Sequence record: MK327931.1
Reading direction: 5' to 3' (one strand)
DNA: 64,000 bases
Source of the DNA: Escherichia phage vB_EcoM_G17
Below are positions 44,703-64,000 of this stretch, in pieces (the first letter of the stretch is position 1; each line of letters starts with the position of its first letter). The notes below the pieces were generated by a model. The model was not told where the DNA came from and did not search any database. It worked only from the letters and a program-made list of their open reading frames with translations. The translations under genes were made by a program, and so were the position numbers.

Positions 44703-44737
44703 AGATAGTTACTCACCGTTATTAACTATATATTTTA

Positions 44738-44814
44738 GATACACTCCTGCACCCAGTGGGCTAGTTTTTGTCTATGCGTATATAATAGCAAAGGGACTGA
44801 CCGGAGTCAATCCC
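44738..44814 (-). repeat. terminator/promoter/box module, copy 1
   Basis: hairpin GGGACTGAC..GTCAATCCC 44793-814 carrying -35 TTGACT 44805-10; 17-nt spacer; -10 TATTAT 44782-87; box AGCCCACTGGGTGCAGGAGTGTATC 44738-62. Confidence 0.65.
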
Positions 44815-47439: not shown

Positions 47440-47484
47440 GTACTTTTTATCAAATAGTTTTCAGTACTGAATACTTATATAATA

Positions 47485-47566
47485 GATACACTTCCGCACC
47501 CTATGGGTCAGTGAGTTATCTCTCAATGAATATATAATAGCAAAGGGACTGACCGGAGTCAATCCC
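47485..47566 (-). repeat. terminator/promoter/box module, copy 2
   Basis: hairpin 47545-66 with -35 TTGACT 47557-62; 17-nt spacer; -10 TATTAT 47534-39; box GACCCATAGGGTGCGGAAGTGTATC 47485-509. Confidence 0.65.
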
Positions 47567-50742: not shown

Positions 50743-50750
50743 CCACCAGC
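50743..50750 (-). other. Chi octamer on minus strand (intergenic)
   Basis: plus strand reads CCACCAGC. Confidence 0.85.
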
Positions 50751-50758
50751 AAACAATA

Positions 50759-50835
50759 GATACATTTATGCACCCTGTGGGCTGATTTGTTTCTATGCGT
50801 ATATAATAGCAAAGGGACTGACCGGAGTCAATCCC
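50759..50835 (-). repeat. terminator/promoter/box module, copy 3
   Basis: hairpin 50814-35 with -35 TTGACT 50826-31; 17-nt spacer; -10 TATTAT 50803-08; box AGCCCACAGGGTGCATAAATGTATC 50759-83. Confidence 0.65.
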
Positions 50836-52723: not shown

Positions 52724-52731
52724 CCACCAGC
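52724..52731 (-). other. Chi octamer on minus strand (intergenic, inside hairpin AGCCCAC..GTGGGCT)
   Basis: plus strand reads CCACCAGC. Confidence 0.85.
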
Positions 52732-52752
52732 GTTAACCAGTGGGCTATAATC

Positions 52753-52896
52753 TTACATCTTGCGGATAATCTTAACAGTATCTTTCACCGATTTACCGTC
52801 TTGCTGGCATTGCTCGATCATTGCGTATTGTTCTGCGGTCAGATCCTCGCCAGTTTTTGCCAGTACTGCGTCGATGAATGAATCCAGTGCGATCAT
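52753..52896 (-). CDS. small protein (47 aa), paralog of 56635..56787
   Basis: below track cutoff; own promoter; C-term CQQDGKSVKDTVKIIRKM vs CAKHGKTINETASIIDKL. Confidence 0.55.
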   Translation of the reverse strand: MIALDSFIDAVLAKTGEDLTAEQYAMIEQCQQDGKSVKDTVKIIRKM

Positions 52897-52940
52897 TTTA
52901 TTTCTCTCTTAGGTTAAGTTAACTACTGTTTATAAAACTT

Positions 52941-52968
52941 ATTATACAGTACTATCAAACGTTGTCAA
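52941..52968 (-). promoter_or_regulatory. sigma70 consensus promoter
   Basis: -35 TTGACA 52963-68, 16-nt spacer, -10 TATAAT 52941-46. Confidence 0.7.
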
Positions 52969-52995
52969 TATATTTAATAGTACTGGTAATATATT

Positions 52996-53175
52996 TTAGC
53001 GGTAATCGTCGTATGCTTTATTCACCTGGCGAATGTAACTTTCAAAGGCTTCGTCTACCGTTTCATACTCCCGAACATAATCACCATAGGAAACTACATA
53101 CATACCTTTTTGATCTTCAAACGTCATGATGATAGAATCCAGACCAACGATTTCAGTTTTTGCGATGATAGCCAT
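52996..53175 (-). CDS. small protein (59 aa)
   Basis: below track cutoff; AAGGAAT SD region; own promoter. Confidence 0.55.
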   Translation of the reverse strand: MAIIAKTEIVGLDSIIMTFEDQKGMYVVSYGDYVREYETVDEAFESYIRQVNKAYDDYR

Positions 53176-53211
53176 TTTTTTAATTCCTTAGTAGTGTAGT
53201 TGATAAAACTT

Positions 53212-53240
53212 ATTATGCCAGTACTATCAATCATTGTCAA
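53212..53240 (-). promoter_or_regulatory. sigma70-like promoter (duplicate of 56060-56088)
   Basis: -35 TTGACA 53235-40, 17-nt spacer, -10 CATAAT 53212-17. Confidence 0.7.
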
Positions 53241-53268
53241 TAGCTTTGATAGTACTGTGATAATATTT

Positions 53269-53481
53269 TTAGTTAATGATAGTCAGTGTAAAATTGTAAT
53301 CACCACAGCGATATAGCACGTTATTCCCAAATGTTCCAACTAATCGCACATCACACAAAACGCCGGTTTTTTCTTTTACTTCCTTGATACTTGTAACTCC
53401 TGTAATATCTTTATTAAAGTATTCATGATCTGAAAATAAAACTTGTTTTGCATTTTTTAATTTCGACCGGATATTAGCCAT
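53269..53481 (-). CDS. hypothetical small protein
   Basis: 70-aa ORF. Confidence 0.7.
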   Translation of the reverse strand: MANIRSKLKNAKQVLFSDHEYFNKDITGVTSIKEVKEKTGVLCDVRLVGTFGNNVLYRCGDYNFTLTIIN

Positions 53482-53501
53482 TTTGTTTTCTCTCTGTTAG
53501 T

Positions 53502-53561
53502 GGGGAGAAGTTTTTCTCCCCTTGATGTAAACTATTATACAGTACTATAATCTATTGTCAA
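53502..53561 (-). promoter_or_regulatory. promoter + 5' leader hairpin cassette
   Basis: -35 TTGACA 53556-61, 16-nt spacer, -10 TATAAT 53534-39; hairpin GGGGAGAA-gttt-TTCTCCCC 53502-21. Confidence 0.8.
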
Positions 53562-53576
53562 ACTATTTTTTTTATA

Positions 53577-53918
53577 TTATTCGAAATCTTCTGGACCGGA
53601 CTGATAATCATCTTCACCGTATGCACTTTCTAACTTCTCGCCAGTGTGGTCATCAGTTAGTGAGTCATCCTCATAGTTCACGTCTACGCCAGTGATGTAA
53701 AACTGGCTATCGTCTGGATCATTGAAATTAATTTTCTGTATGTTTACAATAACTGTATTGATGCCCAGGACACCGCCATCAGCCGTTACAAAGTACTGAT
53801 ATTTTTCACAACCGCCTGAATTGAAACCGTAATTAATTTCGGCCCGACCATCATTTAAACGCAGTGCCTGAGCGATGATTTCATTTTCAAAGTTAGATTG
53901 AGCAATTGAGATAGTCAT
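53577..53918 (-). CDS. hypothetical acidic protein
   Basis: 113-aa ORF. Confidence 0.7.
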   Translation of the reverse strand: MTISIAQSNFENEIIAQALRLNDGRAEINYGFNSGGCEKYQYFVTADGGVLGINTVIVNIQKINFNDPDDSQFYITGVDVNYEDDSLTDDHTGEKLESAYGEDDYQSGPEDFE

Positions 53919-53938
53919 GATTTGTTTCCTTATTACCA

Positions 53939-53997
53939 GGGGAAACCGTTTCCCCTTTCGATGTAAAACATTATACGCTTATTGAGATAGTTTGCAA
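53939..53997 (-). promoter_or_regulatory. promoter + 5' leader hairpin cassette
   Basis: -35 TTGCAA 53992-97, 16-nt spacer, -10 TATAAT 53970-75; hairpin GGGGAAAC-cg-TTTCCCC 53939-55. Confidence 0.75.
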
Positions 53998-54041
53998 GTA
54001 CTTTTTAAAAATAGTTTTCAGTACTCAAACATTATACAATA

Positions 54042-54122
54042 GATACACTCCTGCACCCTGTGGGCTAGTGAGCTATCTCTCAATGAATATATAATAGCAA
54101 AATGGCTGACCGAAGTCAACCA
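54042..54122 (-). repeat. terminator/promoter/box module, copy 4
   Basis: hairpin TGGCTGAC..GTCAACCA 54103-22 (compensatory changes vs other copies), -35 TTGACT 54114-19; 17-nt spacer; -10 TATTAT 54091-96; box 54042-66. Confidence 0.65.
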
Positions 54123-54128
54123 CTTTTT

Positions 54129-54266
54129 TCATTTATTTTTAGCTTTTAGAATCGCCGCCTTTCGTGTCATTCCTTGTTTGATGTACTCCTTTACTTTCGC
54201 TTTTTTAGCGTTTACCTTGTCTGCTTTCGTTTTAGGAGTACTGTAAATTATACCGTTAGGATTCAT
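54129..54266 (-). CDS. small basic protein (45 aa)
   Basis: below track cutoff; directly follows the stop of the upstream micro-ORF. Confidence 0.45.
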   Translation of the reverse strand: MNPNGIIYSTPKTKADKVNAKKAKVKEYIKQGMTRKAAILKAKNK

Positions 54267-54356
54267 TTAAATCACCATAAAGAATAGATAGGTTACTAAC
54301 AACGCCGCGATCAATGCACCGACCAGGGCCGAACTATAGTAAGCTAATGTTTTCAT
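54267..54356 (-). CDS. hydrophobic micro-protein (29 aa)
   Basis: MKTLAYYSSALVGALIAALLVTYLFFMVI; ATGA-coupled upstream. Confidence 0.4.
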   Translation of the reverse strand: MKTLAYYSSALVGALIAALLVTYLFFMVI

Positions 54357-54505
54357 TTTTTAGCCTGAAAATAATGTTTAATTTGTGCGGCGGTCAATGC
54401 ACAATTACGCAGGAAGTTTTCTGTATAACTGCGGCGAGTACTGAAAGAGAATTGACCTTTGCCGTTGCCGATAGTAACATCAAACCGAGCGTTGTATTGT
54501 TTCAT
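54353..54505 (-). CDS. small protein (50 aa)
   Basis: below track cutoff; AAGGAGAA SD; cassette upstream. Confidence 0.55.
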   Translation of the reverse strand: MKQYNARFDVTIGNGKGQFSFSTRRSYTENFLRNCALTAAQIKHYFQAKK

Positions 54506-54524
54506 TTTGATTCTCCTTGTATCA

Positions 54525-54586
54525 GGGGAGAACCATTTCCCCCCCCTCTATGTAAACAATTATACAGTACTGGAAACTAATTGCAA
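54525..54586 (-). promoter_or_regulatory. promoter + 5' leader hairpin cassette
   Basis: -35 TTGCAA 54581-86, 16-nt spacer, -10 TATAAT 54559-64; hairpin from 54525. Confidence 0.75.
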
Positions 54587-54589
54587 GTA

Positions 54590-54736
54590 CTATTTTTTAG
54601 ATTTACGCAAACTTTCTACCATCTCAGGAGTAAGGCCCGGCGGGTAGGAAACCACTTCATCCACAAAACGCAAAGGGAATACCCCAGCGAAAGGTGAACG
54701 TGCTTTCTTGTTAGTACTCTTTTTTGATGCTTTCAT
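54590..54736 (-). CDS. small protein (48 aa)
   Basis: below track cutoff; cassette upstream; MKASKKSTNKKARSPFAG... Confidence 0.5.
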   Translation of the reverse strand: MKASKKSTNKKARSPFAGVFPLRFVDEVVSYPPGLTPEMVESLRKSKK

Positions 54737-54755
54737 TTCATATTCCTTAATTAGT

Positions 54756-54815
54756 GGGGAGAATCATTTCTCCCCTTCATGTAAAACATTATACAGTACT
54801 GAAAACTAATTGCAA
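54756..54815 (-). promoter_or_regulatory. promoter + 5' leader hairpin cassette
   Basis: -35 TTGCAA 54810-15, 16-nt spacer, -10 TATAAT 54788-93; hairpin GGGGAGAA-tcat-TTCTCCCC 54756-75. Confidence 0.8.
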
Positions 54816-55015
54816 GTACTATTTGAAAGTAAATGCTCATACGCTGCATTAACTACGTTTTCAATAACCGACTGTACAGAAAGATCCCCCACGTCCCGGC
54901 TATAGTAGAAATCGCTTACAGTGGTGTCATCGTATGCAAATACTTTACCAGGTACGGCATCAATCACATACATATTAACCTTTAAGATGTCGATCTTATC
55001 CTGTACAGTAAGCAT
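54806..55015 (-). CDS. hypothetical small protein
   Basis: 69-aa ORF. Confidence 0.65.
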   Translation of the reverse strand: MLTVQDKIDILKVNMYVIDAVPGKVFAYDDTTVSDFYYSRDVGDLSVQSVIENVVNAAYEHLLSNSTCN

Positions 55016-55020
55016 ATTAA

Positions 55021-55293
55021 TTAACCTTTTAAGTACTGGCTTAAGTAGTCTTGTTGATCTTCGGTGATTGCAGCCATCTTCCCTAGTACTGGATTGATGA
55101 TATAATCCCCTGTAACGTCCTGTAACGCATTCTCAGGCGGTTTAACGGCTGGGGTAGCCATAGCCATTGCCTGGACTTGTTCGACGCTGTAACGCTCATA
55201 AAGGCGGCATTCTTCCGGTGTTAACATAGCATCAGTACGCTTCATCGGTTTAATGATGCTTTCGATCTCATTCAGTACTTGATTAACGTTCAT
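55021..55293 (-). CDS. hypothetical small protein
   Basis: 90-aa ORF. Confidence 0.7.
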   Translation of the reverse strand: MNVNQVLNEIESIIKPMKRTDAMLTPEECRLYERYSVEQVQAMAMATPAVKPPENALQDVTGDYIINPVLGKMAAITEDQQDYLSQYLKG

Positions 55294-55344
55294 GGTATAA
55301 TCCCCAATATAAGCGGCCTGAATCGACCGCTAACGATGTTTTGA

Positions 55345-55614
55345 TTAATAGGTGTATGGTTGACGTTCAAACAATGATTGCACGTTGTACGCCCCACTAA
55401 TGGGCTTTGCTGGTAAATCAATTTTATATTGTTCACGCTTAAAGATAATAAAACGGCAATTGTTTTTTACATCAAAATTGATTGAACGTTCCAGGAGTTT
55501 TCCATCGTGTACAAATACAAGATAACCGCTTGCTACTTGTTTTGTAGTACTGGTTGCAACCATAGACCGACGAACATGCGTACCTGCATCGATTAAAGTA
55601 CTGATATTTTTCAT
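55345..55614 (-). CDS. hypothetical small protein
   Basis: 89-aa ORF. Confidence 0.7.
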   Translation of the reverse strand: MKNISTLIDAGTHVRRSMVATSTTKQVASGYLVFVHDGKLLERSINFDVKNNCRFIIFKREQYKIDLPAKPISGAYNVQSLFERQPYTY

Positions 55615-55652
55615 TATACGATCCTCTTAAGTTAATTTAATTTCTTTCCCCT

Positions 55653-55689
55653 ATGCAGACACTATATCAAAGTATCTGCATAAAGTAAA
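55653..55689 (-). promoter_or_regulatory. promoter bracketed by a palindromic operator-like repeat
   Basis: -35 TTTACT 55684-89, 17-nt spacer, -10 TATAGT 55661-66; 7-bp arms ATGCAGA (55653-59) / TCTGCAT (55675-81) flank the -10. Confidence 0.55.
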
Positions 55690-55694
55690 GCTAA

Positions 55695-56018
55695 TTAAAG
55701 ATCTTTTTTGCGTTTAACATTCTGTACAGTACAATGCAACGGGATATTAAGATCATTGCACACACGAGTAAGGGAGGTTTCATCAGTATTAAGCCCGTCT
55801 ACTGATTCCTTTAAGAGAGATAACGCCGTTTGTTGATATGCATCTTCATAGCCATAAGTAAATGATTCAACCGCCAGATCATTCAAACCGTTATCCAGTT
55901 CAACGCTTACATGACAAGAATGATAAGTATTGCCATATGAATCAGTCCAACGTTTACCGTCAACATTGATTGCACGGATTGCAGCCAGGGAAACGGTGTT
56001 AATGATAGTTTTAGCCAT
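55695..56018 (-). CDS. hypothetical protein, paralog of 49577..49900
   Basis: shared RWTDSYGNTYHSCHVS...FTYGY...VKRKKDL. Confidence 0.75.
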   Translation of the reverse strand: MAKTIINTVSLAAIRAINVDGKRWTDSYGNTYHSCHVSVELDNGLNDLAVESFTYGYEDAYQQTALSLLKESVDGLNTDETSLTRVCNDLNIPLHCTVQNVKRKKDL

Positions 56019-56059
56019 TTTTGTATTCCTTAAATTAATATGTTGTCTTGATAAAATCT

Positions 56060-56088
56060 ATTATGCCAGTACTATCAAACTATGTCAA
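56060..56088 (-). promoter_or_regulatory. sigma70-like promoter
   Basis: -35 TTGACA 56083-88, 17-nt spacer, -10 CATAAT 56060-65. Confidence 0.7.
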
Positions 56089-56107
56089 TAGTACTGTGAT
56101 AATATTT

Positions 56108-56251
56108 TTACTTACTTTTTGCTTTCTTTGCTGCTTCCACCTGGTCGGCCCATTCTTTACCCCATACTTGTAAATTATAATGGTACTGGCAAAGAGCAAC
56201 GCCCCGCTTTAAACCCGTAATAGATTTCTGACCACATTGACAAGTTTTCAT
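56108..56251 (-). CDS. small Cys-rich protein (47 aa)
   Basis: below track cutoff; MKTCQCGQKS...CQYH; cassette upstream. Confidence 0.55.
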   Translation of the reverse strand: MKTCQCGQKSITGLKRGVALCQYHYNLQVWGKEWADQVEAAKKAKSK

Positions 56252-56268
56252 TTTAGTTTCCTTGTAGT

Positions 56269-56328
56269 GGGGAGAACCATTTCTCCCCTTGATGTAATGT
56301 ATTATACTTTATTCGATTTACTTTGCAA
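56269..56328 (-). promoter_or_regulatory. promoter + 5' leader hairpin cassette
   Basis: -35 TTGCAA 56323-28, 16-nt spacer, -10 TATAAT 56301-06; hairpin GGGGAGAA-ccat-TTCTCCCC 56269-88. Confidence 0.8.
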
Positions 56329-56337
56329 GTACTTTTT

Positions 56338-56565
56338 TTAATTTAATTCATCCAGGCAAAGGATACGCTCAACGCCCAAATCAGTTAAACTAATCGACGG
56401 CACTTGATAGGTTTCAATGTATGCTACACTTGCCCACTGACCGAACTCATTAACGGCCCAGGTATTCATTGCATTTTGCAATTCCGCACCTTCCTTGTTG
56501 GTAATTACAGCAACAGTAGAAGAATTACCAGTAGTACCAGATACGCGAGTGATTACGATAGCCAT
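56338..56565 (-). CDS. hypothetical small protein
   Basis: 75-aa ORF. Confidence 0.7.
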   Translation of the reverse strand: MAIVITRVSGTTGNSSTVAVITNKEGAELQNAMNTWAVNEFGQWASVAYIETYQVPSISLTDLGVERILCLDELN

Positions 56566-56597
56566 TTTTTAATTCCTATTCAGTAGTTGATGTATGT

Positions 56598-56626
56598 ATT
56601 ATGTCAGTACTTAAAACTATTGTCAA
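56598..56626 (-). promoter_or_regulatory. sigma70-like promoter
   Basis: -35 TTGACA 56621-26, 17-nt spacer, -10 CATAAT 56598-603. Confidence 0.7.
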
Positions 56627-56634
56627 ACTATTTT

Positions 56635-56787
56635 TTAAAGTTTATCAATGATTGATGCCGTTTCATTGATAGTCTTGCCGTGTTTTGCACACGCGATAAC
56701 TGCTTTAAATTCCTTTGATGACCAATCTTTCTTGCTGCATACTGACATTACTTGTAAAGTAAAACAATCCAGTTCATAAGTATTCAT
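56635..56787 (-). CDS. small protein (50 aa), paralog of 52753..52896
   Basis: below track cutoff; own promoter. Confidence 0.55.
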   Translation of the reverse strand: MNTYELDCFTLQVMSVCSKKDWSSKEFKAVIACAKHGKTINETASIIDKL

Positions 56788-56832
56788 CTTTAAATCCTCA
56801 GTTAGTTAAGGTGTCTCGCCTTGATGTAATTA

Positions 56833-56860
56833 ATTATACGCTAATCTCTTAATCGTGCAA
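56833..56860 (-). promoter_or_regulatory. sigma70-like promoter
   Basis: -35 TTGCAC 56855-60, 16-nt spacer, -10 TATAAT 56833-38. Confidence 0.65.
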
Positions 56861-56925
56861 GTACTTTTTATTACTTTTTGCAAAATACTTTAAACGCTCT
56901 CAATCGCATTCTAACGACCTTAACT

Positions 56926-56933
56926 CCACCAGC
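56926..56933 (-). other. Chi octamer on minus strand (intergenic)
   Basis: plus strand reads CCACCAGC. Confidence 0.85.
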
Positions 56934-57002
56934 TAGGGCGATGTATCAGATAATCAGTTTAATGCGTTAGGCGGTGCTAGTGGACTGGAATACTATAGAC
57001 AC

Positions 57003-57029
57003 AAAAAAGCCCACTGTTTAAGGTGGGCT
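57003..57029 (-). terminator. rho-independent terminator (copy 1 of an identical ~40-bp repeat)
   Basis: AGCCCAC-8nt-GTGGGCT followed by T6 on minus strand after 57051..57533. Confidence 0.85.
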
Positions 57030-57050
57030 AGTGATTCAGTACTTTAATTT

Positions 57051-57533
57051 TTATGCTTCAACTTTGCGATGAGCTTCGATCCATTCCTCGCGAGTCATAC
57101 CGCTTTCTTTGATAGCGTCCAGTACTACCGCAATGCAGTTACCGCGTACAGGAATCAAATGTTCTTCCCCGTTATCAAGTACTACCGCTACACGTTCCTG
57201 AATCCATTTTTTAGGCTTAGATTCCGGCTTATCTTCACCATACTTAACCGCCAGGGCTTTATGTGCCATTTCCACAACCACTTCCAGATCCAATCCAGAC
57301 ACTGCCGCCTGAATACTTTCAATTGTTGCTTGTAGTTCTGCTTCACGGGCTTTTTTCTGTTCTTCCAGTTCTGCTACCTTTTTGGCTTGCAGTTCTTTCG
57401 CAGTACTGTACGCAATGTTAAAATTGTTGCGTACCGCTTTCATGGTATCGCTATCCAGTTCAGCCAGGATTTCTGCCGCTACGTTAGTTTCATTTGCTAC
57501 CAGTGCTTTGATGAATGATTTTACATTAGCCAT
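57051..57533 (-). CDS. hypothetical protein with a central coiled-coil-like segment
   Basis: trimmed to MANVKSF; KELQAKKVAELEEQKKAREAELQATIESIQ. Confidence 0.75.
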   Translation of the reverse strand: MANVKSFIKALVANETNVAAEILAELDSDTMKAVRNNFNIAYSTAKELQAKKVAELEEQKKAREAELQATIESIQAAVSGLDLEVVVEMAHKALAVKYGEDKPESKPKKWIQERVAVVLDNGEEHLIPVRGNCIAVVLDAIKESGMTREEWIEAHRKVEA

Positions 57534-57589
57534 TTTATAAATCCTCAATTAAAGTTTAGTTTACGTTAGATAGTGTATCAAAGTTTTCT

Positions 57590-57647
57590 CGACGTGTCCA
57601 GTTTTTCGTTCGACTTACTGGCGGTCTACTTAGTGCTCCCCGTCTTG
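57590..57647 (-). promoter_or_regulatory. conserved leader element, diverged copy 3
   Basis: shares GTTTTTCG, CTTACT, CTACTTA and CCCCGTCTTGATG blocks with 50606-50674 and 60594-60664. Confidence 0.35.
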
Positions 57648-57656
57648 ATGTAATAC

Positions 57657-57684
57657 ATTCTACGCTTTTCTGTGGTAATGTCAA
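57657..57684 (-). promoter_or_regulatory. sigma70-like promoter
   Basis: -35 TTGACA 57679-84, 16-nt spacer, -10 TAGAAT 57657-62. Confidence 0.65.
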
Positions 57685-57738
57685 CTACTTTTTTAAAACT
57701 ATTTTTAAAGTATCTCAGTACTACGATACTACAAAAAC

Positions 57739-57765
57739 AAAAAAGCCCACTGTTTAAGGTGGGCT
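57739..57765 (-). terminator. rho-independent terminator (copy 2 of an identical repeat)
   Basis: same AGCCCAC..GTGGGCT stem followed by T6 after 57783..58082. Confidence 0.85.
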
Positions 57766-57782
57766 AGTGATTCAGTACTAGA

Positions 57783-58082
57783 TTATAAACAGTTAATTAC
57801 TCCGGTGTGCGTTACTTTCTCAGTATCCATAACCGTGACCGATCCACGCTTAGTACTGGCATCATAATAAATTGTGGTGCTACCGTTTTCGTCTTCTTCA
57901 TGGAACGGGCCGTTTTTAAATGCTTCCGGCTGGATCTCTAAATCCTTTAATACAATCTCGCCAGTTCTTTCATCGGTCATTGCAACAGTGCACTGAATGA
58001 ATTTTTCATTACTTACATCTAATGACGCATTAACAGCGAAAGAGGAAACAGATAAAGCCAGGGCGATGATTGCAATTTTCAT
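57783..58082 (-). CDS. secreted/periplasmic small protein
   Basis: N-term signal peptide MKIAIIALALSVSSFAVNA. Confidence 0.75.
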   Translation of the reverse strand: MKIAIIALALSVSSFAVNASLDVSNEKFIQCTVAMTDERTGEIVLKDLEIQPEAFKNGPFHEEDENGSTTIYYDASTKRGSVTVMDTEKVTHTGVINCL

Positions 58083-58102
58083 TTGATTATCCTTAGTTAC
58101 CA

Positions 58103-58161
58103 GGGGGAACCGCTCCCCCTTGCTATGTAAAATATTATACAGTACTAAAAACTAATTGCAA
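58103..58161 (-). promoter_or_regulatory. promoter + 5' leader hairpin cassette
   Basis: -35 TTGCAA 58156-61, 16-nt spacer, -10 TATAAT 58134-39; hairpin GGGGGAA-ccg-CTCCCCC 58103-19. Confidence 0.75.
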
Positions 58162-58166
58162 GTACT

Positions 58167-58403
58167 TTATGATTTTTTATAAAACATTTCGGCAGTGATA
58201 TTTTTACCCGTTGGCTGTACTTTATCCAGAATTTTTTGATGCCCTGGCCGTCCAAATGAATATGATCCGTAAACCGTAAACCAGTAGTTACCCTCAGTGT
58301 TTACATGTACAGCACAATAGGGAACGCCCCGCGATTCATCACTAGTAAAGTGTGCTACCGTTCCCGTTACATTCGAAGTCGTTGATTTGATTTGTTCAAG
58401 CAT
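58167..58403 (-). CDS. hypothetical small protein
   Basis: 78-aa ORF. Confidence 0.7.
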   Translation of the reverse strand: MLEQIKSTTSNVTGTVAHFTSDESRGVPYCAVHVNTEGNYWFTVYGSYSFGRPGHQKILDKVQPTGKNITAEMFYKKS

Positions 58404-58424
58404 TTTCTTATTCCTTAGTTACCA

Positions 58425-58477
58425 GGGGAACCGCTCCCCTATGCAAAACATTATACGCGTTTAAAAACTAATAGCAA
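58425..58477 (-). promoter_or_regulatory. promoter + 5' leader hairpin cassette
   Basis: -35 TTGCTA 58472-77, 16-nt spacer, -10 TATAAT 58450-55; hairpin 58425-39. Confidence 0.7.
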
Positions 58478-58510
58478 GTATTTTAATAAAAAGTATTTGG
58501 AAAATAATTG

Positions 58511-58539
58511 TTGACAAGTGCATCCAGTACTGGCATAAT
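58511..58539 (+). promoter_or_regulatory. plus-strand sigma70 promoter, divergent from 58450-58477
   Basis: -35 TTGACA 58511-16, 17-nt spacer, -10 CATAAT 58534-39. Confidence 0.65.
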
Positions 58540-58545
58540 TACTAC

Positions 58546-58654
58546 ATCAAGACGAAACAGTCACTAACCCACCGGGTGCATAGATCCGTCTATTAAATGA
58601 TTCAGTACTGAAAAAGTAACGGGGAGTTATTATCTCCCCGCGTTGTTATTTTGT
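58546..58654 (+). ncRNA. candidate ~110-nt plus-strand small RNA
   Basis: own promoter; hairpin GAC-gaaaca-GTC; box AACCCACCGGGTGCATAG 58566-83; ATAGA-tccg-TCTAT; terminal hairpin CGGGGAG-7nt-CTCCCCG 58620-40 followed by a U-rich tail; no ORF. Confidence 0.4.
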
Positions 58655-58867
58655 AAGGTATAAACAGAAGTCACCTTTATTTGCTACGCCGCCAGTGTAA
58701 CGCGATGAATAGTTAGAAATATCTTGTACTTCTGCTATTACCAGTGTATCATCATTCATTTCGTCGCAGAAGCAAACGGCTGGATCTTTTACGCCGATAT
58801 TGTCGGCATGTTCCCGCATAGATTTAACCAGTGCTTCCAGTTGAGAAAGAGTAGTGATATTAGCCAT
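58646..58867 (-). CDS. hypothetical small protein
   Basis: trimmed to MANITTLSQ. Confidence 0.7.
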   Translation of the reverse strand: MANITTLSQLEALVKSMREHADNIGVKDPAVCFCDEMNDDTLVIAEVQDISNYSSRYTGGVANKGDFCLYLTK

Positions 58868-58886
58868 TGTATTTTCCTCATTACCA

Positions 58887-58945
58887 GGGAGAACCATTTC
58901 TCCCCTCTATGTAAACTATTATACAGTACTGAAAACTAATTGCAA
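58887..58945 (-). promoter_or_regulatory. promoter + 5' leader hairpin cassette
   Basis: -35 TTGCAA 58940-45, 16-nt spacer, -10 TATAAT 58918-23; hairpin 58887-904. Confidence 0.75.
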
Positions 58946-58953
58946 GTACTTTT

Positions 58954-59157
58954 TTAATTTAATTGCTTTAAAACATACTCAAAGACACCACGCACATCAT
59001 TGATCATCGCCTGGCGGTTAGCAGGTAACGCATCAGGATCGCCACTATCCCAGGCATTGATAAAACTCCCCAAATCATGATAGATTTTATTCTGTAAGCC
59101 GATTAACTGTAATTCTTTTTCTTCAAGCTCTTTGATGCGGTCGATTAAATCACTCAT
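58954..59157 (-). CDS. hypothetical small protein
   Basis: trimmed to MSDLIDRIKE after GAGGA. Confidence 0.65.
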   Translation of the reverse strand: MSDLIDRIKELEEKELQLIGLQNKIYHDLGSFINAWDSGDPDALPANRQAMINDVRGVFEYVLKQLN

Positions 59158-59174
59158 TAGATAATCCTCAGTAC

Positions 59175-59459
59175 TTAACTGTAAGATCCGCAACGGTCGC
59201 AGTAGTGCCCGTCCTCGTCATCGTCAACGAATTGACCGACGAAATGATCTACTTTCGCTTTCAGGTTATTATAATCGTTTTCTACTTCATTTAAACGCTT
59301 CTGGTAGTATTCCAGTGCTTTAAGATATGCCGCATCAGCAGTTTTCTCCTGCATAGCTAAATTCATGCCACGCGTTTCATCGTACAGCCAAAAACCATCG
59401 GTGCACTGGCTAATAGATAATGACTTGCTTAGTACTGTATAGTTAATTACTTTACCCAT
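59175..59459 (-). CDS. hypothetical small protein
   Basis: 94-aa ORF; C-term HYCDRCGSYS. Confidence 0.7.
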   Translation of the reverse strand: MGKVINYTVLSKSLSISQCTDGFWLYDETRGMNLAMQEKTADAAYLKALEYYQKRLNEVENDYNNLKAKVDHFVGQFVDDDEDGHYCDRCGSYS

Positions 59460-59477
59460 TAGATAATCCTCAGTAAA

Positions 59478-59537
59478 GGCGGGAACTATTCCCCGCCTCG
59501 ATATAAAGTATTATACGTTAATCTAACTACAATGCAA
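59478..59537 (-). promoter_or_regulatory. promoter + 5' leader hairpin cassette
   Basis: -35 TTGCAT 59532-37, 16-nt spacer, -10 TATAAT 59510-15; hairpin GGCGGGAA-cta-TTCCCCGCC 59478-97. Confidence 0.75.
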
Positions 59538-59551
59538 GTACTTTTTAAATT

Positions 59552-59818
59552 TTATAATCCTTTTACTGCATCAGGTGCGACTACTCCATCAATGTATTGA
59601 ACATCGTTTTCAACTTCACGGGCGGCATCATTCAGCAGATCAAAATTAAATTCCATTTCTTCCAGATCATCGAAATCAGGCTCATAACCATTAATTGTTG
59701 AATAAGTCCAAGTACCTTTTTCATAAGTTACGACACTTACATCAGGGAAGAAATCTTGCACATGATCCATCGCATCCCGAACCAATTGATGTGCAGTTGT
59801 GATATTTAAAGTTTTCAT
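59552..59818 (-). CDS. hypothetical small protein
   Basis: 88-aa ORF. Confidence 0.7.
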   Translation of the reverse strand: MKTLNITTAHQLVRDAMDHVQDFFPDVSVVTYEKGTWTYSTINGYEPDFDDLEEMEFNFDLLNDAAREVENDVQYIDGVVAPDAVKGL

Positions 59819-59839
59819 TTTGTTGCCCTTTTAGTGTGA

Positions 59840-59899
59840 GCGGGGAACCACTCCCCGCCTCGATGTAAAGTATTATACGCTTTTAAACTTAGTTTGCAA
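59840..59899 (-). promoter_or_regulatory. promoter + 5' leader hairpin cassette
   Basis: -35 TTGCAA 59894-99, 16-nt spacer, -10 TATAAT 59872-77; hairpin GCGGGGAA-cca-CTCCCCGC 59840-58. Confidence 0.75.
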
Positions 59900-59911
59900 G
59901 TACTTTTTAAA

Positions 59912-60523
59912 TTAATATGCGATTGATTCTACTACGTCATCAATAACATTGAATTGATATTCGTTACCCTCAATCAGTGCCGTAATGTTTTCAGTAGTGA
60001 ATTGATCCTCATATGCATTCTCTAAATCACGGTACAACTTGCGGGATAATTCACGAATAGTTTCAGTGAGTAGTTCCTCAAGCTCATTAACTAACGTTTC
60101 TTGTTTTGCGGTTAAATCAGTGTAAGCCGATTCAATGTACCCGCTTACAGTATTCTCATGCGAGTAGTGGGAGTGAGAACGCTTTACACTCATCGCCAAA
60201 TCATCTTCATTCAGCAGGTGACGGATTGAGCGATACTTAGTTAATGCTCTTACCTTGCGTAAAAACTTCACTGCGTCAACGTGGTCAGTACTGATTGATG
60301 CACCGTCACCCTGGGACCAAAAACCACTGAATTGTATTTCAGCTTCATTAATGCCATATTCCGGTAGTACTGTTTCTTTATAGTATTCAATTTCACTTTC
60401 AGAAAAATAATTGTCGTTTGAGTTTTTTTCACGTTCCCGAACCAGTTCGATAGCTGACGTTTTTTGTTCTGCGTTCAATTCAGAAAAATCCATAACGAAA
60501 GTAGTAGTAGTGATAGTTTTCAT
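59912..60523 (-). CDS. hypothetical protein
   Basis: 203-aa ORF; motif FSGFWSQGDGASIS, family not identified. Confidence 0.75.
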   Translation of the reverse strand: MKTITTTTFVMDFSELNAEQKTSAIELVREREKNSNDNYFSESEIEYYKETVLPEYGINEAEIQFSGFWSQGDGASISTDHVDAVKFLRKVRALTKYRSIRHLLNEDDLAMSVKRSHSHYSHENTVSGYIESAYTDLTAKQETLVNELEELLTETIRELSRKLYRDLENAYEDQFTTENITALIEGNEYQFNVIDDVVESIAY

Positions 60524-60555
60524 TTTGTAACCCTCATTCAGTAGTTGATGTAAGT

Positions 60556-60583
60556 ATTATACGCTTTTAAAAACATTTGTCAA
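60556..60583 (-). promoter_or_regulatory. sigma70-like promoter (proximal of a tandem pair)
   Basis: -35 TTGACA 60578-83, 16-nt spacer, -10 TATAAT 60556-61. Confidence 0.7.
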
Positions 60584-60593
60584 ACTATTTTAT

Positions 60594-60664
60594 CAGGGGA
60601 GTTTTTCGTGTGCCTTACTCCTGGGCTACTTAACGGGAAGTTACTTATTTCGTTCCCCGTCCTG
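60594..60664 (-). promoter_or_regulatory. conserved ~70-nt leader element, copy 2
   Basis: near-copy of 50606-50674. Confidence 0.45.
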
Positions 60665-60673
60665 ATGTAAAAC

Positions 60674-60701
60674 ATTATACGCCTTTAAACATAGTTTGCA
60701 A
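60674..60701 (-). promoter_or_regulatory. sigma70-like promoter (distal of a tandem pair)
   Basis: -35 TTGCAA 60696-701, 16-nt spacer, -10 TATAAT 60674-79. Confidence 0.7.
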
Positions 60702-60746
60702 GTACTTTTTAAAAATAGTTTTCAGTACTGAATATTTAAAAAAGTA

Positions 60747-60810
60747 TTGACAGCATTATCAAGTACTGGCATAATATACCCCATGACAACAGCTAACCCA
60801 CCGGGTGCAC
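60747..60810 (+). promoter_or_regulatory. plus-strand promoter followed by a box (plus sense)
   Basis: -35 TTGACA 60747-52, 17-nt spacer, -10 CATAAT 60770-75; box AACCCACCGGGTGCAC 60795-810. Confidence 0.6.
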
Positions 60811-60842
60811 AATTGTAACTATACTAAACTACTTTTTCTATA

Positions 60843-60919
60843 GATACACTCCCGCACCCTATGGGCTACGGCTTATCTGCCAATGAATACATTATGCCAG
60901 TACTGACAAAATAAGTCAA
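60843..60919 (-). promoter_or_regulatory. minus-strand promoter followed by a box, convergent with 60747-60810
   Basis: -35 TTGACT 60914-19, 17-nt spacer, -10 CATAAT 60891-96; box AGCCCATAGGGTGCGGGAGTGTATC 60843-67. Confidence 0.6.
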
Positions 60920-60949
60920 TACCGGCAATTGTAAAGATTTGTAAACTGC

Positions 60950-61180
60950 TTATACTGCAATCGCGTCCAGGCTATAATAATAATAAGTGCCGTATTGGTG
61001 TACTTTATTACCTTTTATTTCAGTACTGAATGAATCCGAACGGTTTGCATATGATGTTAATTTAAAGTACTTTGATTTGCTGATACGTTGCCATACACCG
61101 CAGATCCGCTGTAAGTAAGTAGTTTTATTCGTGGTAGTATCTTTTACAGTTTTAACTTCAGTCATATACATATTAGTCAT
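60950..61180 (-). CDS. hypothetical small protein
   Basis: 76-aa ORF. Confidence 0.7.
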   Translation of the reverse strand: MTNMYMTEVKTVKDTTTNKTTYLQRICGVWQRISKSKYFKLTSYANRSDSFSTEIKGNKVHQYGTYYYYSLDAIAV

Positions 61181-61201
61181 TTTTATTACTCCAGGTTATA
61201 G

Positions 61202-61260
61202 GCGGGAAGAGTTCCCGCTCTCGATGTAAAACATTATACGCCATTAAACATAGTTTGCAA
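61202..61260 (-). promoter_or_regulatory. promoter + 5' leader hairpin cassette
   Basis: -35 TTGCAA 61255-60, 16-nt spacer, -10 TATAAT 61233-38; hairpin GCGGGAA-gag-TTCCCGC 61202-18. Confidence 0.75.
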
Positions 61261-61267
61261 GTACTTT

Positions 61268-61534
61268 TTATTCAAGTACTGCAATCTTTTTAGTACGGTA
61301 CACGGTCACGCGGTTGCCCTTTCGGTCGAGCTTTATTTCTACCACTCGACGCGATACACTATCAGGACTTTTCAACGCCGCTAACCAGTACTGTAATGAT
61401 CTGGCGGTACTACGCTTTATAATGGCCCAACGTTTACCACGTTCCGATTGTACGCCCATATCTTTAAACGTTGCCCCGTCCTGGCGTGCGGCGATCCGAG
61501 CTTGTTCACGCGTCGCAAAATACTTAATATTCAT
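61268..61534 (-). CDS. hypothetical protein, paralog of 49086..49490
   Basis: trimmed to MNIKYFATREQARIAARQDGATFKDMG; C-term DRKGNRVTVYRTKK. Confidence 0.75.
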   Translation of the reverse strand: MNIKYFATREQARIAARQDGATFKDMGVQSERGKRWAIIKRSTARSLQYWLAALKSPDSVSRRVVEIKLDRKGNRVTVYRTKKIAVLE

Positions 61535-61619
61535 GCTGTTGCCCTTATCGTTGGTGTATGAATAAAACACTATTATAAAGTACTATCGCAAAAAATGATA
61601 GTACTTTAAATAAATTCTA

Positions 61620-61859
61620 TTACATTCCAACCATTGCAGCACGGATCGCAGTAGTGCTATATTTGAATCCGTCCGGCGTTTTATCTTGTCCAGTCTGTTC
61701 TAAAAATAACATCATATGACGGGCCGCATCATTACGATTAGTATTGGCGGCAATAAAGTCCTGGGCCAACCGGTATAATGATTCATCGTTATTAATCCAA
61801 AGGCTTACATTCCAATGAGTTTTGTTTTTGTGACCTAAGAACATTTTTGATTTAGCCAT
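61620..61859 (-). CDS. hypothetical small protein
   Basis: trimmed to MAKSKMFLGHK. Confidence 0.7.
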   Translation of the reverse strand: MAKSKMFLGHKNKTHWNVSLWINNDESLYRLAQDFIAANTNRNDAARHMMLFLEQTGQDKTPDGFKYSTTAIRAAMVGM

Positions 61860-61879
61860 TTTTTTAATCCTCTTATATA

Positions 61880-61938
61880 GTGGGGAACTATTCCCCACCT
61901 GATGTAAAACATTATACGCTTTTAAACATAGTTTGCAA
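61880..61938 (-). promoter_or_regulatory. promoter + 5' leader hairpin cassette
   Basis: -35 TTGCAA 61933-38, 16-nt spacer, -10 TATAAT 61911-16; hairpin GTGGGGAA-cta-TTCCCCAC 61880-97. Confidence 0.75.
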
Positions 61939-61952
61939 GTACTTTATTAAAC

Positions 61953-62315
61953 TTATTCGTAAATTTTGCCACTGTCAGCCCATACCAGGAAACGAGGCAT
62001 ATTATCCCATGCATCTTGTTTTAAATTTAAACCGTGTAATACTTCTGTACTTTCCATTCCTGGTACTGGTTTACTATACACCGCGAAATTTTCGCCCATA
62101 TACTGATAAACCATCGTCAAATCACTGGCGATCATCTTATGGATCATCGCATCAAGCATCACGGTAGCGGCGTATTGTTCACGCTTAAGCGGCAACATTG
62201 TAATAAGTTCCCGATAAGCTGAAATGTGAATTTTTACCGTTTCAGCCGGAAGACCTTTCATCTCTTCACGGAAGTTGACCAGGTTAGAAATAATTTTATT
62301 GATTTGGGTCGCCAT
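61953..62315 (-). CDS. hypothetical protein
   Basis: trimmed to MATQINKII. Confidence 0.7.
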   Translation of the reverse strand: MATQINKIISNLVNFREEMKGLPAETVKIHISAYRELITMLPLKREQYAATVMLDAMIHKMIASDLTMVYQYMGENFAVYSKPVPGMESTEVLHGLNLKQDAWDNMPRFLVWADSGKIYE

Positions 62316-62339
62316 CGTATTAATCTCTTTTAAAGTGTA

Positions 62340-62398
62340 GCGGGAAGTGTTCCCGCTCTCGATGTAAAACATTATACGCCTTTAAACATAGTTTGCAA
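62340..62398 (-). promoter_or_regulatory. promoter + 5' leader hairpin cassette (rightmost protein-coding unit)
   Basis: -35 TTGCAA 62393-98, 16-nt spacer, -10 TATAAT 62371-76; hairpin GCGGGAA-gtg-TTCCCGC 62340-56. Confidence 0.75.
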
Positions 62399-62634
62399 GT
62401 ACTTTCTACATGTACTTTTAAAATAGTTTTCTTTCTATATAGGGGAACTATCATTCAGTACTATTATTCAGTACTGAATCAACCAAATCACTACTACACC
62501 CCATAAAACGGCCTCAGACGCATTCTAACGCATTAATACACCTAAGCTATACATTTGCACCATTCCAATCATTCCAGGGCTTTACGGGCCGTTTAAACGC
62601 GTTAAATTATTTTCAATTATTTTGTTTTTAGCTA

Positions 62635-62720
62635 TTGACTCAGTACAGAAAAAGCGTATAATTACTACATAGACGCGAGAAAGCGGAAACCCCAGAGGGT
62701 GCGGAATTACGCCCAAAATT
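62635..62720 (+). promoter_or_regulatory. plus-strand promoter followed by a box
   Basis: -35 TTGACT 62635-40, 16-nt spacer, -10 TATAAT 62657-62; hairpin CGC-gagaaa-GCG; box ACCCCAGAGGGTGCGGAATTACGCCCAAAATTC. Confidence 0.55.
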
Positions 62721-62736
62721 CAAGATATAAAAAAAG

Positions 62737-62816
62737 GATACACTCCCGCACCCTAGCAGGTAAACGCACTTTCTCAGTACTGAAATATAGTACCATAGTC
62801 CGGCCCAGGATAGCAA
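62737..62816 (-). promoter_or_regulatory. minus-strand promoter followed by a box, convergent with 62635-62720
   Basis: -35 TTGCTA 62811-16, 18-nt spacer, -10 TACTAT 62787-92; box CCTGCTAGGGTGCGGGAGTGTATCC 62737-60. Confidence 0.5.
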
Positions 62817-62850
62817 GCAAATTAATTAAAACTTTTTTGCTTCCAGGGTA

Positions 62851-62936
62851 TTGCTTTATTTTTTCAGTACTGTATAATAGTTCCATCAAGTCGAGAAAGA
62901 CTCAAGCCCACCGGGTGCATAGTTACGCCCAAAATT
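62851..62936 (+). promoter_or_regulatory. plus-strand promoter followed by a box
   Basis: -35 TTGCTT 62851-56, 16-nt spacer, TGnTATAAT 62873-78; hairpin GTC-gagaaa-GAC; box AGCCCACCGGGTGCATAGTTACGCCCAAAATTC 62905-36. Confidence 0.55.
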
Positions 62937-62974
62937 CAGTACTGAAAAAATTTTTAAAAATATCCGTCCAGGCC

Positions 62975-63003
62975 GTTGACATTGCCCCCAGTTTATAAGA
63001 TAA
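62975..63003 (+). promoter_or_regulatory. plus-strand sigma70-like promoter
   Basis: -35 TTGACA, 17-nt spacer, -10 GATAAT; followed by GGGGAAACTATCCCC hairpin near 63041-55. Confidence 0.45.
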
Positions 63004-63101
63004 TGATTCCAGATTCAGAAAAATCTAACTCCAGATACTGCGGGGAAACTATCCCCACGCGGTAGGGGAACTATTGGAAAAAACAAAATAAAATTTTGAT
63101 T

Positions 63102-63215
63102 TAGCCGTCTATACTTCCAGACGTGTAACCATCTAGCCGTTTAGCCGTCCAAACGTCTAGCCATCCAGAAATCTAGCCGTCTAGATGGATAGCCATCTTT
63201 ACTTCCAGACTTCTG
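63102..63215. repeat. iteron-like short direct repeats plus small palindromes
   Basis: (C)TAGCC(G/A)T(C/T) at ~63102, 63133, 63142, 63157, 63173, 63190; ACTTCCAGAC twice; palindromes AGATGG-atag-CCATCT and CCAGA-ct-TCTGG. Confidence 0.6.
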
Positions 63216-63395
63216 GAGGGCTAGACATATCTACGCCCAAAATCCATCCAGGGTAACTACACCCAAAATCCGTCAGTACTATACCATAGATCTATCTTTT
63301 GAAAGGGAGTATTCAGTACTGCCATCATAGCCCTCACTATGTTACCCTAGGAGGATGAAGACCATCATGTAGTACTGAATACTGTTAGAGGGAAT

Positions 63396-63415
63396 CCACC
63401 AGCACAAGCTGGTGG
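63396..63415. other. palindromic Chi pair (one Chi on each strand)
   Basis: CCACCAGC-acaa-GCTGGTGG, exact. Confidence 0.85.
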
Positions 63416-63607
63416 TATAATGCTTTAGATTAAAATCAGTACTGACACCATTCTGTTAATATCAGTACTGTTATTACGATTTTCATATGAGGTTCAAAAA
63501 GATGTACCACCACAGGAGGAACTATCTTTTCTGTACTGTCTCACGACAGGAGGTAGAGTAAATGAATTGTTCGCAGCAACTCATCACCCCTTGAAGCTAT
63601 GTAGAAC

Positions 63608-63635
63608 ATTATACAGTACTGAATCATAATGTCAA
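63608..63635 (-). promoter_or_regulatory. sigma70 consensus promoter with no ORF downstream
   Basis: -35 TTGACA 63630-35, 16-nt spacer, TGnTATAAT 63608-13; leftward transcript has no ORF above ~20 aa. Confidence 0.6.
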
Positions 63636-64000
63636 TAGCTTTCTTTCATTATTCAGTACTGATATTCTTGAGAACTACCCGACTACAAACATCATTATAT
63701 CCCACAAATCATAAACGTCCCAACGTAAATTTCAACTTTCGAAGATCCAACTTTTATTTCATAGGTACTCCAAAATTTTTAGGATCGAGATTTAGGATGG
63801 AGTACTAACCAACTTTTTGCTGGAGCCTCAAGGGGTAATTGAATTTTACCCCGAAGGGTAAAAGGGTAATTGTAATTAAGGTGAAAGTAATAATTCAGTA
63901 CTAATCATTGCGTGATTACTTTTGATTACATTTGATGTAATTTGCAAAATGGAAAAGGAGCTTGGAAACTACAAAGTACGGCAGACTTCCTCTGCCTACT

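Follow-up and report, generated by a model that had tools for sequence, protein, structure and literature searches.

We analysed a 64,000-nucleotide stretch of Escherichia phage vB_EcoM_G17 (MK327931.1; hereafter the window) and, within it, a putative small RNA gene on the plus strand at 58546-58654. The reference record was that of Escherichia phage Sharanji (OR545507.1; Asteriusvirus, 350 kb), taken as circular, with window position 27556 at record position 1. Nearly all real genes of the window lie on the minus strand, and the locus falls between two genes of an early array of small genes of unknown function, gp092 (58167..58403) and gp093 (58646..58867/58897). Both belong to PHROGs of unknown function (phrog_33522 for gp093), and neither has a significant Pfam match. 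The small early genes around the locus each carry their own TTGCAA-16-TATAAT promoter and a GGGGA...UCCCC hairpin in the 5' untranslated region (UTR). Between gp092 and gp093, the intergenic region 58404-58645 contains two promoters and a terminator hairpin. We report that the plus-strand unit in this region is one member of a multi-copy family in which a strong promoter is linked to a structured RNA element, and that this family is shared by RaK2-like jumbo phages.

Anatomy of the 58546-58654 unit

The original prediction described this locus as the best-defined antisense small RNA gene of the region, with its own promoter and terminator, and all the elements of that description are present (Table 1). 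The plus-strand promoter has an extended -10 element, with TG at 58531-58532 (TGgCATAAT), and its -10 hexamer ends 28 nt before a sequence that we call the box. Only seven plus-strand sites of the 64-kb window score at least 11/12, and three of these belong to box units. The promoter stands back-to-back with the gp092 promoter, 33 bp separating the two -35 hexamers (about 35 bp had been predicted), and an A+T-rich stretch at 58478-58510 lies upstream of both. No co-oriented open reading frame (ORF) follows the unit promoter, which faces the 3' end of gp093.

The RNA predicted from this promoter appears non-coding: its sole ATG opens a four-codon ORF without a Shine-Dalgarno sequence. The small 5' hairpin and the box that it was said to contain were both found. 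The hairpin (P1) has 3 bp and a 6-nt purine-rich loop (-3.0 kcal/mol) and ends 5 nt before the box, and the box itself folds as a mini-hairpin, (A)CCC-ACC-GGG(U), at 58567-58577 in both the minimum-free-energy and the centroid structures. The terminal stem (CGGGGAG 58620-26, 7-nt loop, CTCCCCG 58634-40) has a predicted energy of -13.5 kcal/mol on the plus strand and -15.1 kcal/mol on the minus strand. This hairpin, 58620-58640, scored as terminator-like on both strands, in agreement with the proposal that it serves the convergent gene as well. The plus-strand tail (58641-58654, CGUUGUUAUUUUG) is U-rich but interrupted, and the predicted 3' end of the RNA reaches the gp093 stop codon, as had been proposed.

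Searching the window against Rfam 15 gave no match at gathering level. The best weak match was sroE, with 22 bits against a gathering score of 51, and the weak matches in the window were terminator-driven. At permissive E-values no Rfam family, JUMPstart included, recurred at units in other genera. ARAGORN detected no tRNA or tmRNA gene in the window.

A multi-copy family confined to RaK2-like jumbo phages

The box occurs in nine exact copies in the window, where 0.46 would be expected even with one mismatch, and none of 100 shuffled sequences reached nine. All nine copies lie within 44.7-63 kb of the window, and each has a near-consensus sigma70 promoter before it in the same orientation, with the -10 hexamer ending 21-28 nt upstream. 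The family consensus comprises a sigma70 promoter, P1, the box CCCAYNGGGUGC and a YRYCY flank, usually followed by AGUACU. We built a covariance model (R1) from a 20-member seed (alignment A3) that left out the 58546-58654 copy. This model revealed 118 units (E < 0.01) in 273 kb fetched from RaK2-like jumbo phage genomes, including RaK2, GAP32, 121Q, fHe-Yen9-04 and related 345-378-kb contigs. In the complete 350-kb Sharanji genome it found exactly ten units, all at record 17.2-35.4 kb and thus within 18 kb. The other genomes hold at least 7-13 units each, except one contig represented by a single short locus, these counts being lower bounds where genomes were fetched only in part. The copy left out of the seed scores 37.8 bits (E = 3e-7) and shows every family feature tested, namely promoter distance, P1, box with YRYCY and model score. 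What had been singled out as the best single candidate is therefore one of ten units in Sharanji and of a clade-wide family.

The first 20,668 positions of the Sharanji record (1-20668) are reported to form a direct terminal repeat of 20.7 kb (PMC11895373). Two of the ten units (44729-44783 and 47476-47533; record 17.2 and 19.9 kb) fall inside this repeat and would therefore occur twice in virion DNA.

A promoter-plus-box pattern search of IMG/VR returned 34 loci, of which 30 are RaK2-like jumbo phage contigs, mostly of 345-378 kb, and the remaining four are single GC-rich chance matches. By BLAST, the members are Klebsiella phage RaK2, Cronobacter phage GAP32 and Yersinia phage fHe-Yen9-04, together with others related to Salmonella phage Munch, Klebsiella fENko-Kae01 and Pectobacterium CBB. 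When 185,579 bacterial and archaeal species genomes were searched with this pattern, it matched at 35 single, scattered loci, none of them in Enterobacterales; none scores with the covariance model, and they look like chance matches. The element is therefore specific to the phage clade, and an origin in the host, or mimicry of a host element, was rejected on these grounds. Nothing like the element is described in the searchable literature, including the Sharanji, CBB and PA5oct papers and a search with the box sequence, and the GAP32 record, which annotates promoters and terminators, has nothing at the units. With no match in Rfam, annotation or literature, this promoter-plus-structured-RNA module is previously undescribed.

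Conserved promoter linkage and RNA structure

We compared 102 distinct units across the family. A promoter of at least 9/12 stands at the right distance in 100 of them, with its -10 end 20-30 nt upstream of the box, and 88% reach at least 10/12, as against 2.9% of control positions. In 85 of the 102 units (58 ± 4.6 in shuffles) a P1 of 3 bp or more stops 2-6 nt short of the box, and in 56 it has at least 4 bp (25.6 ± 4.3 in shuffles, maximum 40). The 34 distinct P1 stems enclose purine-rich loops of 6-8 nt, among them the conserved GCGAAA, GAGAAA and AGAUAA and also AGAACAA. Since stem and loop lengths vary, MAFFT with RNAalifold and a first model-based alignment misregistered P1, and loop-anchored counts were used instead. 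In this test the loop motif alone is the anchor and nothing is selected for pairing (54 units). Flanking pairs 1 to 4 are formed in 48, 47, 53 and 40 of the 54 units, against at most 32/54 in slid registers, and they use GC, CG, AU and UA. Over the four inner pairs we counted 12 G-U-type against 2 A-C-type combinations. This large excess of G-U-type pairs places P1 on the transcribed sense strand.

The box forms a mini-hairpin, (R)CCC-AYN-GGG(U), which also appears in the RNAalifold consensus. Its stem is invariant but for rare compensatory changes: three sequences carry a double C-G to U-A replacement (CCU/AGG; for example CCUACAAGGUGC and CCUUAUAAGGUGU). Some variants in relatives have 4-nt loops. 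A YRYCY pentamer (UAUCU, CGUCU, UACCC and others) follows at +8 to +12 after the box, and its pairing with GGGUG (P2) is compatible in about 95% of cells (95.7% and 95%), compared with at most 71% in slid registers. AGTAC stands 15-45 nt after the box in 64% of units, as against 17% of background positions. The second hairpin of the original prediction, ATAGA-tccg-TCTAT, is indeed present (ATAGA 58580-84, loop TCCG, TCTAT 58589-93) but is not conserved; all five pairs form in only 7 of 83 units and two are lost, leaving 3 bp, in five of nine orthologues, and we rejected it as a conserved element.

Orthologues and architectures

Nine Asteriusvirus genomes share an invariant promoter, P1 stem, box, AGAUCCGUCUAU and CAGUACU in this unit. 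The 121Q orthologue differs at two positions of the P1 loop and one central position of the box (P1 GAC-GAGAUA-GUC). Among these orthologues the terminator is replaced by three other GC hairpins, GGGGAUC-N4-GAUCCCC, which implies that the position of the hairpin is selected and the sequence overlapping gp093 is not.

Three architectures were recognised among 92 units: sense leaders, convergent pairs and antisense orphans. About 45 of the 92 are sense leaders; some run directly into a Shine-Dalgarno sequence and ATG, and in many the gene's ordinary promoter comes next. The -35 of a sense copy is often embedded in the terminator hairpin of the gene before it. In the minus-strand sense units of the window, the -35 hexamer TTGACT lies within a 9-bp terminator-like hairpin, AAAAAGGGATTGAC-TCCG-GTCAGTCCCTTTGC (44790-44835, 47540-47582, 50810-50856 and 54095-54139), so that the upstream gene's terminator and the unit promoter overlap in a composite like the promoter-early stem-loop (PeSL) cassettes considered below. 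A further 30 of the 92 units form convergent pairs, with 45 nt, less often 56 or 63 nt, between the boxes. Such pairs were also seen in loci L013, L015, L016, L019, L024, L025, L030 and L033, often with AGTACT near the centre; their transcripts would be complementary over about 125 nt, which might lead to double-stranded RNA, polymerase collision or mutual termination.

The orphans, to which the 58546-58654 copy belongs, are antisense to their flanking genes. We compared 11 of them, from RaK2, GAP32, fHe-Yen9-04, a CBB-size contig, 121Q, Sharanji and metagenomic relatives. Measured from the box, their GC hairpin (terminator) usually begins at +39 to +41, and in 10 of the 11 the convergent gene has its stop codon at +64 to +79; the divergent gene has its ATG at -155 to -181 in most. 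Orphans of different genera are flanked by unrelated proteins, except where the genomes are closely related. A toxin-antitoxin-like pair at the orphans was rejected because the flanking genes are non-orthologous across genera, and autoregulation through a common downstream gene family was rejected because the genes after sense units are diverse, unrelated ORFans. Conservation among orthologues and the recurring orphan design point to a discrete small unit with its own promoter and terminator, as originally proposed.

Table 1. Coordinates of the 58546-58654 unit, its neighbours and its paralogues in the window
Feature	Position	Strand	Details
Sigma70-type promoter	58511..58539	+	-35 TTGACA 58511-58516, 17-bp spacer, -10 CATAAT 58534-58539; 11/12
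Predicted primary transcript, ~100-109 nt	58546..58654	+	start predicted at A58546, end in U-rich tail
P1 5' hairpin	58551..58562	+	GAC 58551-53, loop GAAACA, GUC 58560-62; family covariation
Invariant box CCCACCGGGTGC (CCCACCGGGUGC, CCCAYNGGGTGC)	58568..58579	+	exact-copy count, fold, consensus
3' flank of box	58580..58593	+	YRYCY pentamer CGUCU 58587-58591; local hairpin AUAGA-UCCG-UCUAU
Palindrome CAGTACTG	58604..58611	+	25 nt after box
Bidirectional intrinsic-terminator-like hairpin and plus-strand U-rich tail	58620..58654	both	common to unit and convergent gp093
Divergent early gp092 promoter	58450..58477	-	TTGCTA-16-TATAAT (58477-58450)
gp093, convergent gene	58646..58867	-	phrog_33522; stop codon 58646-58648
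Paralogous unit, sense, short leader	44729..44783	-	model R1, 43.0 bits
Paralogous unit, sense, P1 UGAG-AGAUAA-CUCA	47476..47533	-	model R1, 66.1 bits
Paralogous unit, sense, short leader	50750..50804	-	model R1, 34.6 bits
Paralogous unit, sense, P1 UGAG-AGAUAG-CUCA	54033..54090	-	model R1, 58.7 bits
Convergent pair	60774..60890	60774-60828 (+), 60834-60890 (-)	boxes 45 nt apart; model R1
Convergent pair, minus partner degenerate	62665..62787	62665-62722 (+), 62728-62787 (-)	boxes 45 nt apart; model R1
Paralogous unit, P1 AGUC-GAGAAA-GACU	62881..62938	+	model R1, 39.0 bits

Other repeated elements and gene boundaries of the early region

Base composition predicts about 119 copies of the palindrome AGTACT in the 350-kb Sharanji genome, which contains 903; for CAGTACTG the count is 199 against about 3.5 predicted, and TCAGTACTGA is present 47 times. 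AGTACT peaks at record 20-40 kb, with 62-64 copies per 10 kb. Examples are found in the window at 58604-58611, 60722-60733 and 62935-62946. The motif is placed in promoter spacers (cAGTACTGgCATAAT), beside -35 hexamers (AGTACTTGCAA), and 20-25 nt after boxes, and it also forms some terminator stems (AGTACTGG-N8-CCAGTACT). Possible roles are those of an operator or a binding site for an abundant factor.

The ordinary early-gene cassette is present in at least 17 copies in window 50000-64000 (for example 58404-58477, 58868-58945 and 59460-59553) and runs in the order TTGCAA(GTACTTTTT)-16-TATAAT, a ATGTAAAAC-like start, a GGGGAnnnnnTCCCC 5' UTR hairpin and a Shine-Dalgarno sequence. It is a second, distinct conserved leader type of the same region. 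Two 54-nt terminator modules beginning AAAAAAGCCCACTGTTTAAGGTGGGCT are 94% identical (56990-57043 and 57726-57779), and a 100-nt repeat of 87% identity (50550-50649 and 60538-60637) contains a TTGTCAAAC promoter and a CAGGGGAGTTTTTCG...CTCCTGG hairpin; both are additional repeated regulatory cassettes of the early array.

The GenBank start of gp093, ATG 58897 (83 aa), lies inside a predicted 5' UTR hairpin, GGGGAGAAATGGTTCTCCC. A GAGGA Shine-Dalgarno sequence precedes the ATG at 58867, which agrees with the 73-aa form of our prediction for the orthologue in 121Q; GenBank probably places the start 10 codons too far upstream. A gene-poor region of about 6 kb (window 62400-64000; record 34.8-40.5 kb), with only four small annotated ORFs and no tRNA gene, divides the minus-strand early array from a plus-strand block beginning at record 40817. 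Within it lie the final box units, GGGGAAACTATCCCC-type hairpins and, at 62976, another promoter on the plus strand (TTGACA-17-GATAAT).

Proposed function and alternative explanations

We favour the explanation that the locus is an autonomous small early unit, one of ten promoter-P1-box modules, whose 5' core would be recognised by a trans-acting factor, and we judge it about equally likely to be right or wrong. From the sequence comparisons we infer transcription of the unit, the ends of its RNA, the factor and its effect as follows. Host sigma70 RNA polymerase would start at about 58546 and transcribe, in order, P1, a 4-5-nt linker, the box as a CCC/GGG triloop hairpin, the YRYCY flank and the AGUACU palindrome, before stopping at the GC hairpin common to the unit and the convergent gene. 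The product would be a non-coding RNA of about 100-110 nt, each end protected by structure, and its active part would be the 5' core of about 55 nt found in all copies, and not the 3' end that reaches gp093. Displayed beside P1 at the very start of early transcripts, the box hairpin would be the recognition site for one trans-acting factor, which may be a conserved phage protein or a host component (RNA polymerase, an RNA-binding protein or an RNase). The invariance of the box across genera whose proteins have diverged suggests a very conserved partner, which would be part of the host machinery or one of the core proteins of the phage. In sense copies the element would tag early mRNAs in cis; from orphan copies it would be released as a free small RNA, to decoy, titrate or carry the factor.

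Several points weigh against this explanation. P1 of the 58546-58654 copy has only 3 bp, the proposed P2 helix is weak there (+0.8 kcal/mol), and the whole 109-nt RNA folds no better than shuffled sequences (z = -1.34). Long-range pairing of the 3' flank with the leader or the P1 loop, as a helix or pseudoknot, was not borne out by a permutation test (11.23 against 11.19 ± 0.20). The U-tail on the plus strand is interrupted, and the terminal hairpin may be no more than gp093's own terminator. Roughly half of the units are sense-oriented and lack their own terminator, a pattern at least as compatible with a purely cis-acting leader as with a free small RNA. Transcript data for Sharanji or its relatives were not found in the searchable literature, and no candidate binding factor was identified, no systematic protein search having been made.

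The original prediction was of a cis-antisense RNA, which would control the stability or translation of gp093 mRNA by pairing at its 3' end or with read-through transcripts. This is how OOP RNA of phage lambda acts on cII: a 77-nt cis-antisense RNA convergent with cII, it overlaps its target by tens of nucleotides and acts through the duplex. Like OOP, the unit would yield a short phage RNA from its own sigma70 promoter and intrinsic terminator that reaches the 3' end of a convergent gene; the terminator common to both genes, the RNA end at the stop codon and the recurrence across genera of the convergent stop at +64 to +79 in 10 of 11 orphans all agree with antisense action. Unlike in OOP, however, the coding overlap beyond the common terminator is at most 9 nt and is the most variable region among the nine orthologues, and the conserved part is multi-copy and lies outside it. 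The convergent genes are unrelated between genera, and the conserved 5' core is complementary to no neighbouring gene and is common to sense and paired copies. Antisense action on 58646..58867 is thus left unsupported, and we consider it very unlikely. Alternatively, nascent P1 and box could bind the transcribing RNA polymerase, with or without the help of a phage or host factor, and make it resistant to termination or pausing. The lambdoid nut sites (boxA/boxB, bound by N) and the put RNAs of HK022 are small, promoter-proximal, orientation-dependent RNA elements at early promoters. The module likewise is always promoter-proximal in one fixed orientation, combines a short hairpin with a conserved box at more than one early promoter, has purine-rich loops boxB-like in style, and heads, in its sense copies, gene arrays dense in terminator-like hairpins; the invariance of the box across genera fits a conserved partner such as RNA polymerase. 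The RNA of about 105 nt would then be a by-product terminated when the factor is absent, as for the lambda 6S RNA, the terminated pR'-tR' leader that heads the late operon and is extended by Q. 6S shares with the unit a strong constitutive promoter with a terminator about 100-200 nt further on, a design that yields an abundant short RNA, but the unit points away from co-oriented genes and shows no evident Q-binding or sigma-dependent pause element. The module also differs from nut in having no boxA-like sequence (CGCUCUUA-like), in that its hairpin precedes the box, and in its loops of 6-8 nt (6-nt GAAACA in this copy), as opposed to the GNRA-like pentaloops of boxB. Nor does its box, CCCAYNGGGTGC in this unit, match the 12-nt ops/RfaH (JUMPstart) consensus GGCGGTAGnnTG, and no N-, Q- or RfaH-like gene was identified, again without a systematic protein search. 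Unlike nut and put, it is present in about 10 copies per genome, including orphans that point antisense into early genes, where read-through has no obvious use, and convergent pairs that are hard to reconcile with antitermination; the precisely spaced terminator at +39 to +41 suggests that termination is intended. We regard a nut- or put-like signal as unlikely. Likenesses to the 5' region of tmRNA, the anticodon arm of tRNA-Thr, CRISPR repeats and ops were leads only, without tool support.

The closest described entity, in setting and modularity, is the PeSL cassette of T4-type phages (Arbiol et al. 2010, PMC2839356; Comeau et al. 2014, PMC4122927), a terminator-like stem-loop with a near-consensus sigma70 early promoter found in ORFan-rich regions of T4-related myoviruses. 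Both repeat a terminator-like stem-loop and a promoter among small ORFans, at constant geometry and with differing flanking genes. The module could accordingly be a DNA-level cassette for insulation, the convergent promoter blocking read-through, and/or for the shuffling of ORFans, with RNA as a by-product. Units do occupy the interval from one small gene's terminator to the next gene's promoter, at a constant distance from genes whose proteins are unrelated, and the -35 of sense copies sits within the terminator hairpin GGGATTGAC-TCCG-GTCAGTCCC. However, P1 covariation and the asymmetry of G-U over A-C combinations indicate selection on a single-stranded sense structure, variable stems lower the homology that recombination needs, and an insulator needs no invariant transcribed box. 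As described in these papers, PeSLs consist of terminator and promoter only, with no conserved transcribed leader, whereas the module adds one with a covarying P1 and an invariant box. It also occurs in both orientations, in convergent pairs with a fixed 45-nt spacing and as orphans driving no gene; at the 58546-58654 unit, the promoter drives no adjacent downstream ORF as a PeSL would. A purely DNA-level role is, in our estimate, quite unlikely. Finally, the transcripts could act through R-loops, priming or localising DNA replication in the manner of T4 oriF/oriG or the T7 primary origin, with convergent pairs as zones of initiation. In favour of this are an RNase HI gene in the phage, the grouping of the units within 18 kb in the direction of the divergence in gene orientation at record ~40.7 kb, and the strong convergent promoters with A+T-rich spacers. 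Yet ten or more origins in one early region are implausible, R-loop origins need no covarying 5' hairpin, and several copies are ordinary 5' UTRs running directly into a Shine-Dalgarno sequence and ATG, so that we hold a primer function to be extremely improbable.

The comparative evidence thus argues for a small RNA gene and gives no support to an antisense regulator. RaK2-like jumbo phages (Asteriusvirus, Alcyoneusvirus, Mimasvirus, Eneladusvirus and relatives) are under development for therapy, and more than 80% of their genes are without known function; to our knowledge, their early gene regulation has not been studied. A bolder extension, which we put forward tentatively and think rather unlikely to hold, is that the module represents a new class of phage RNA signal, with about 10 copies per genome in at least five genera, that captures a conserved host machine, which would be RNA polymerase in cis (reprogramming of the put/nut kind) or, in trans, an RNase or RNA-binding protein for which it is a decoy, and that orphan and convergent copies have evolved to produce free RNA or a defined double-stranded RNA. 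A 12-nt box that stays invariant amid proteins diverged beyond recognition, coupled to a covarying hairpin and to the strongest early promoters, must contact something important. The family merits an Rfam entry and accounts for many 'empty' intergenic regions in these genomes. The identity of its partner would open a handle on host takeover in the RaK2-like clade, and could add a new small, portable RNA-protein or RNA-polymerase recognition element.

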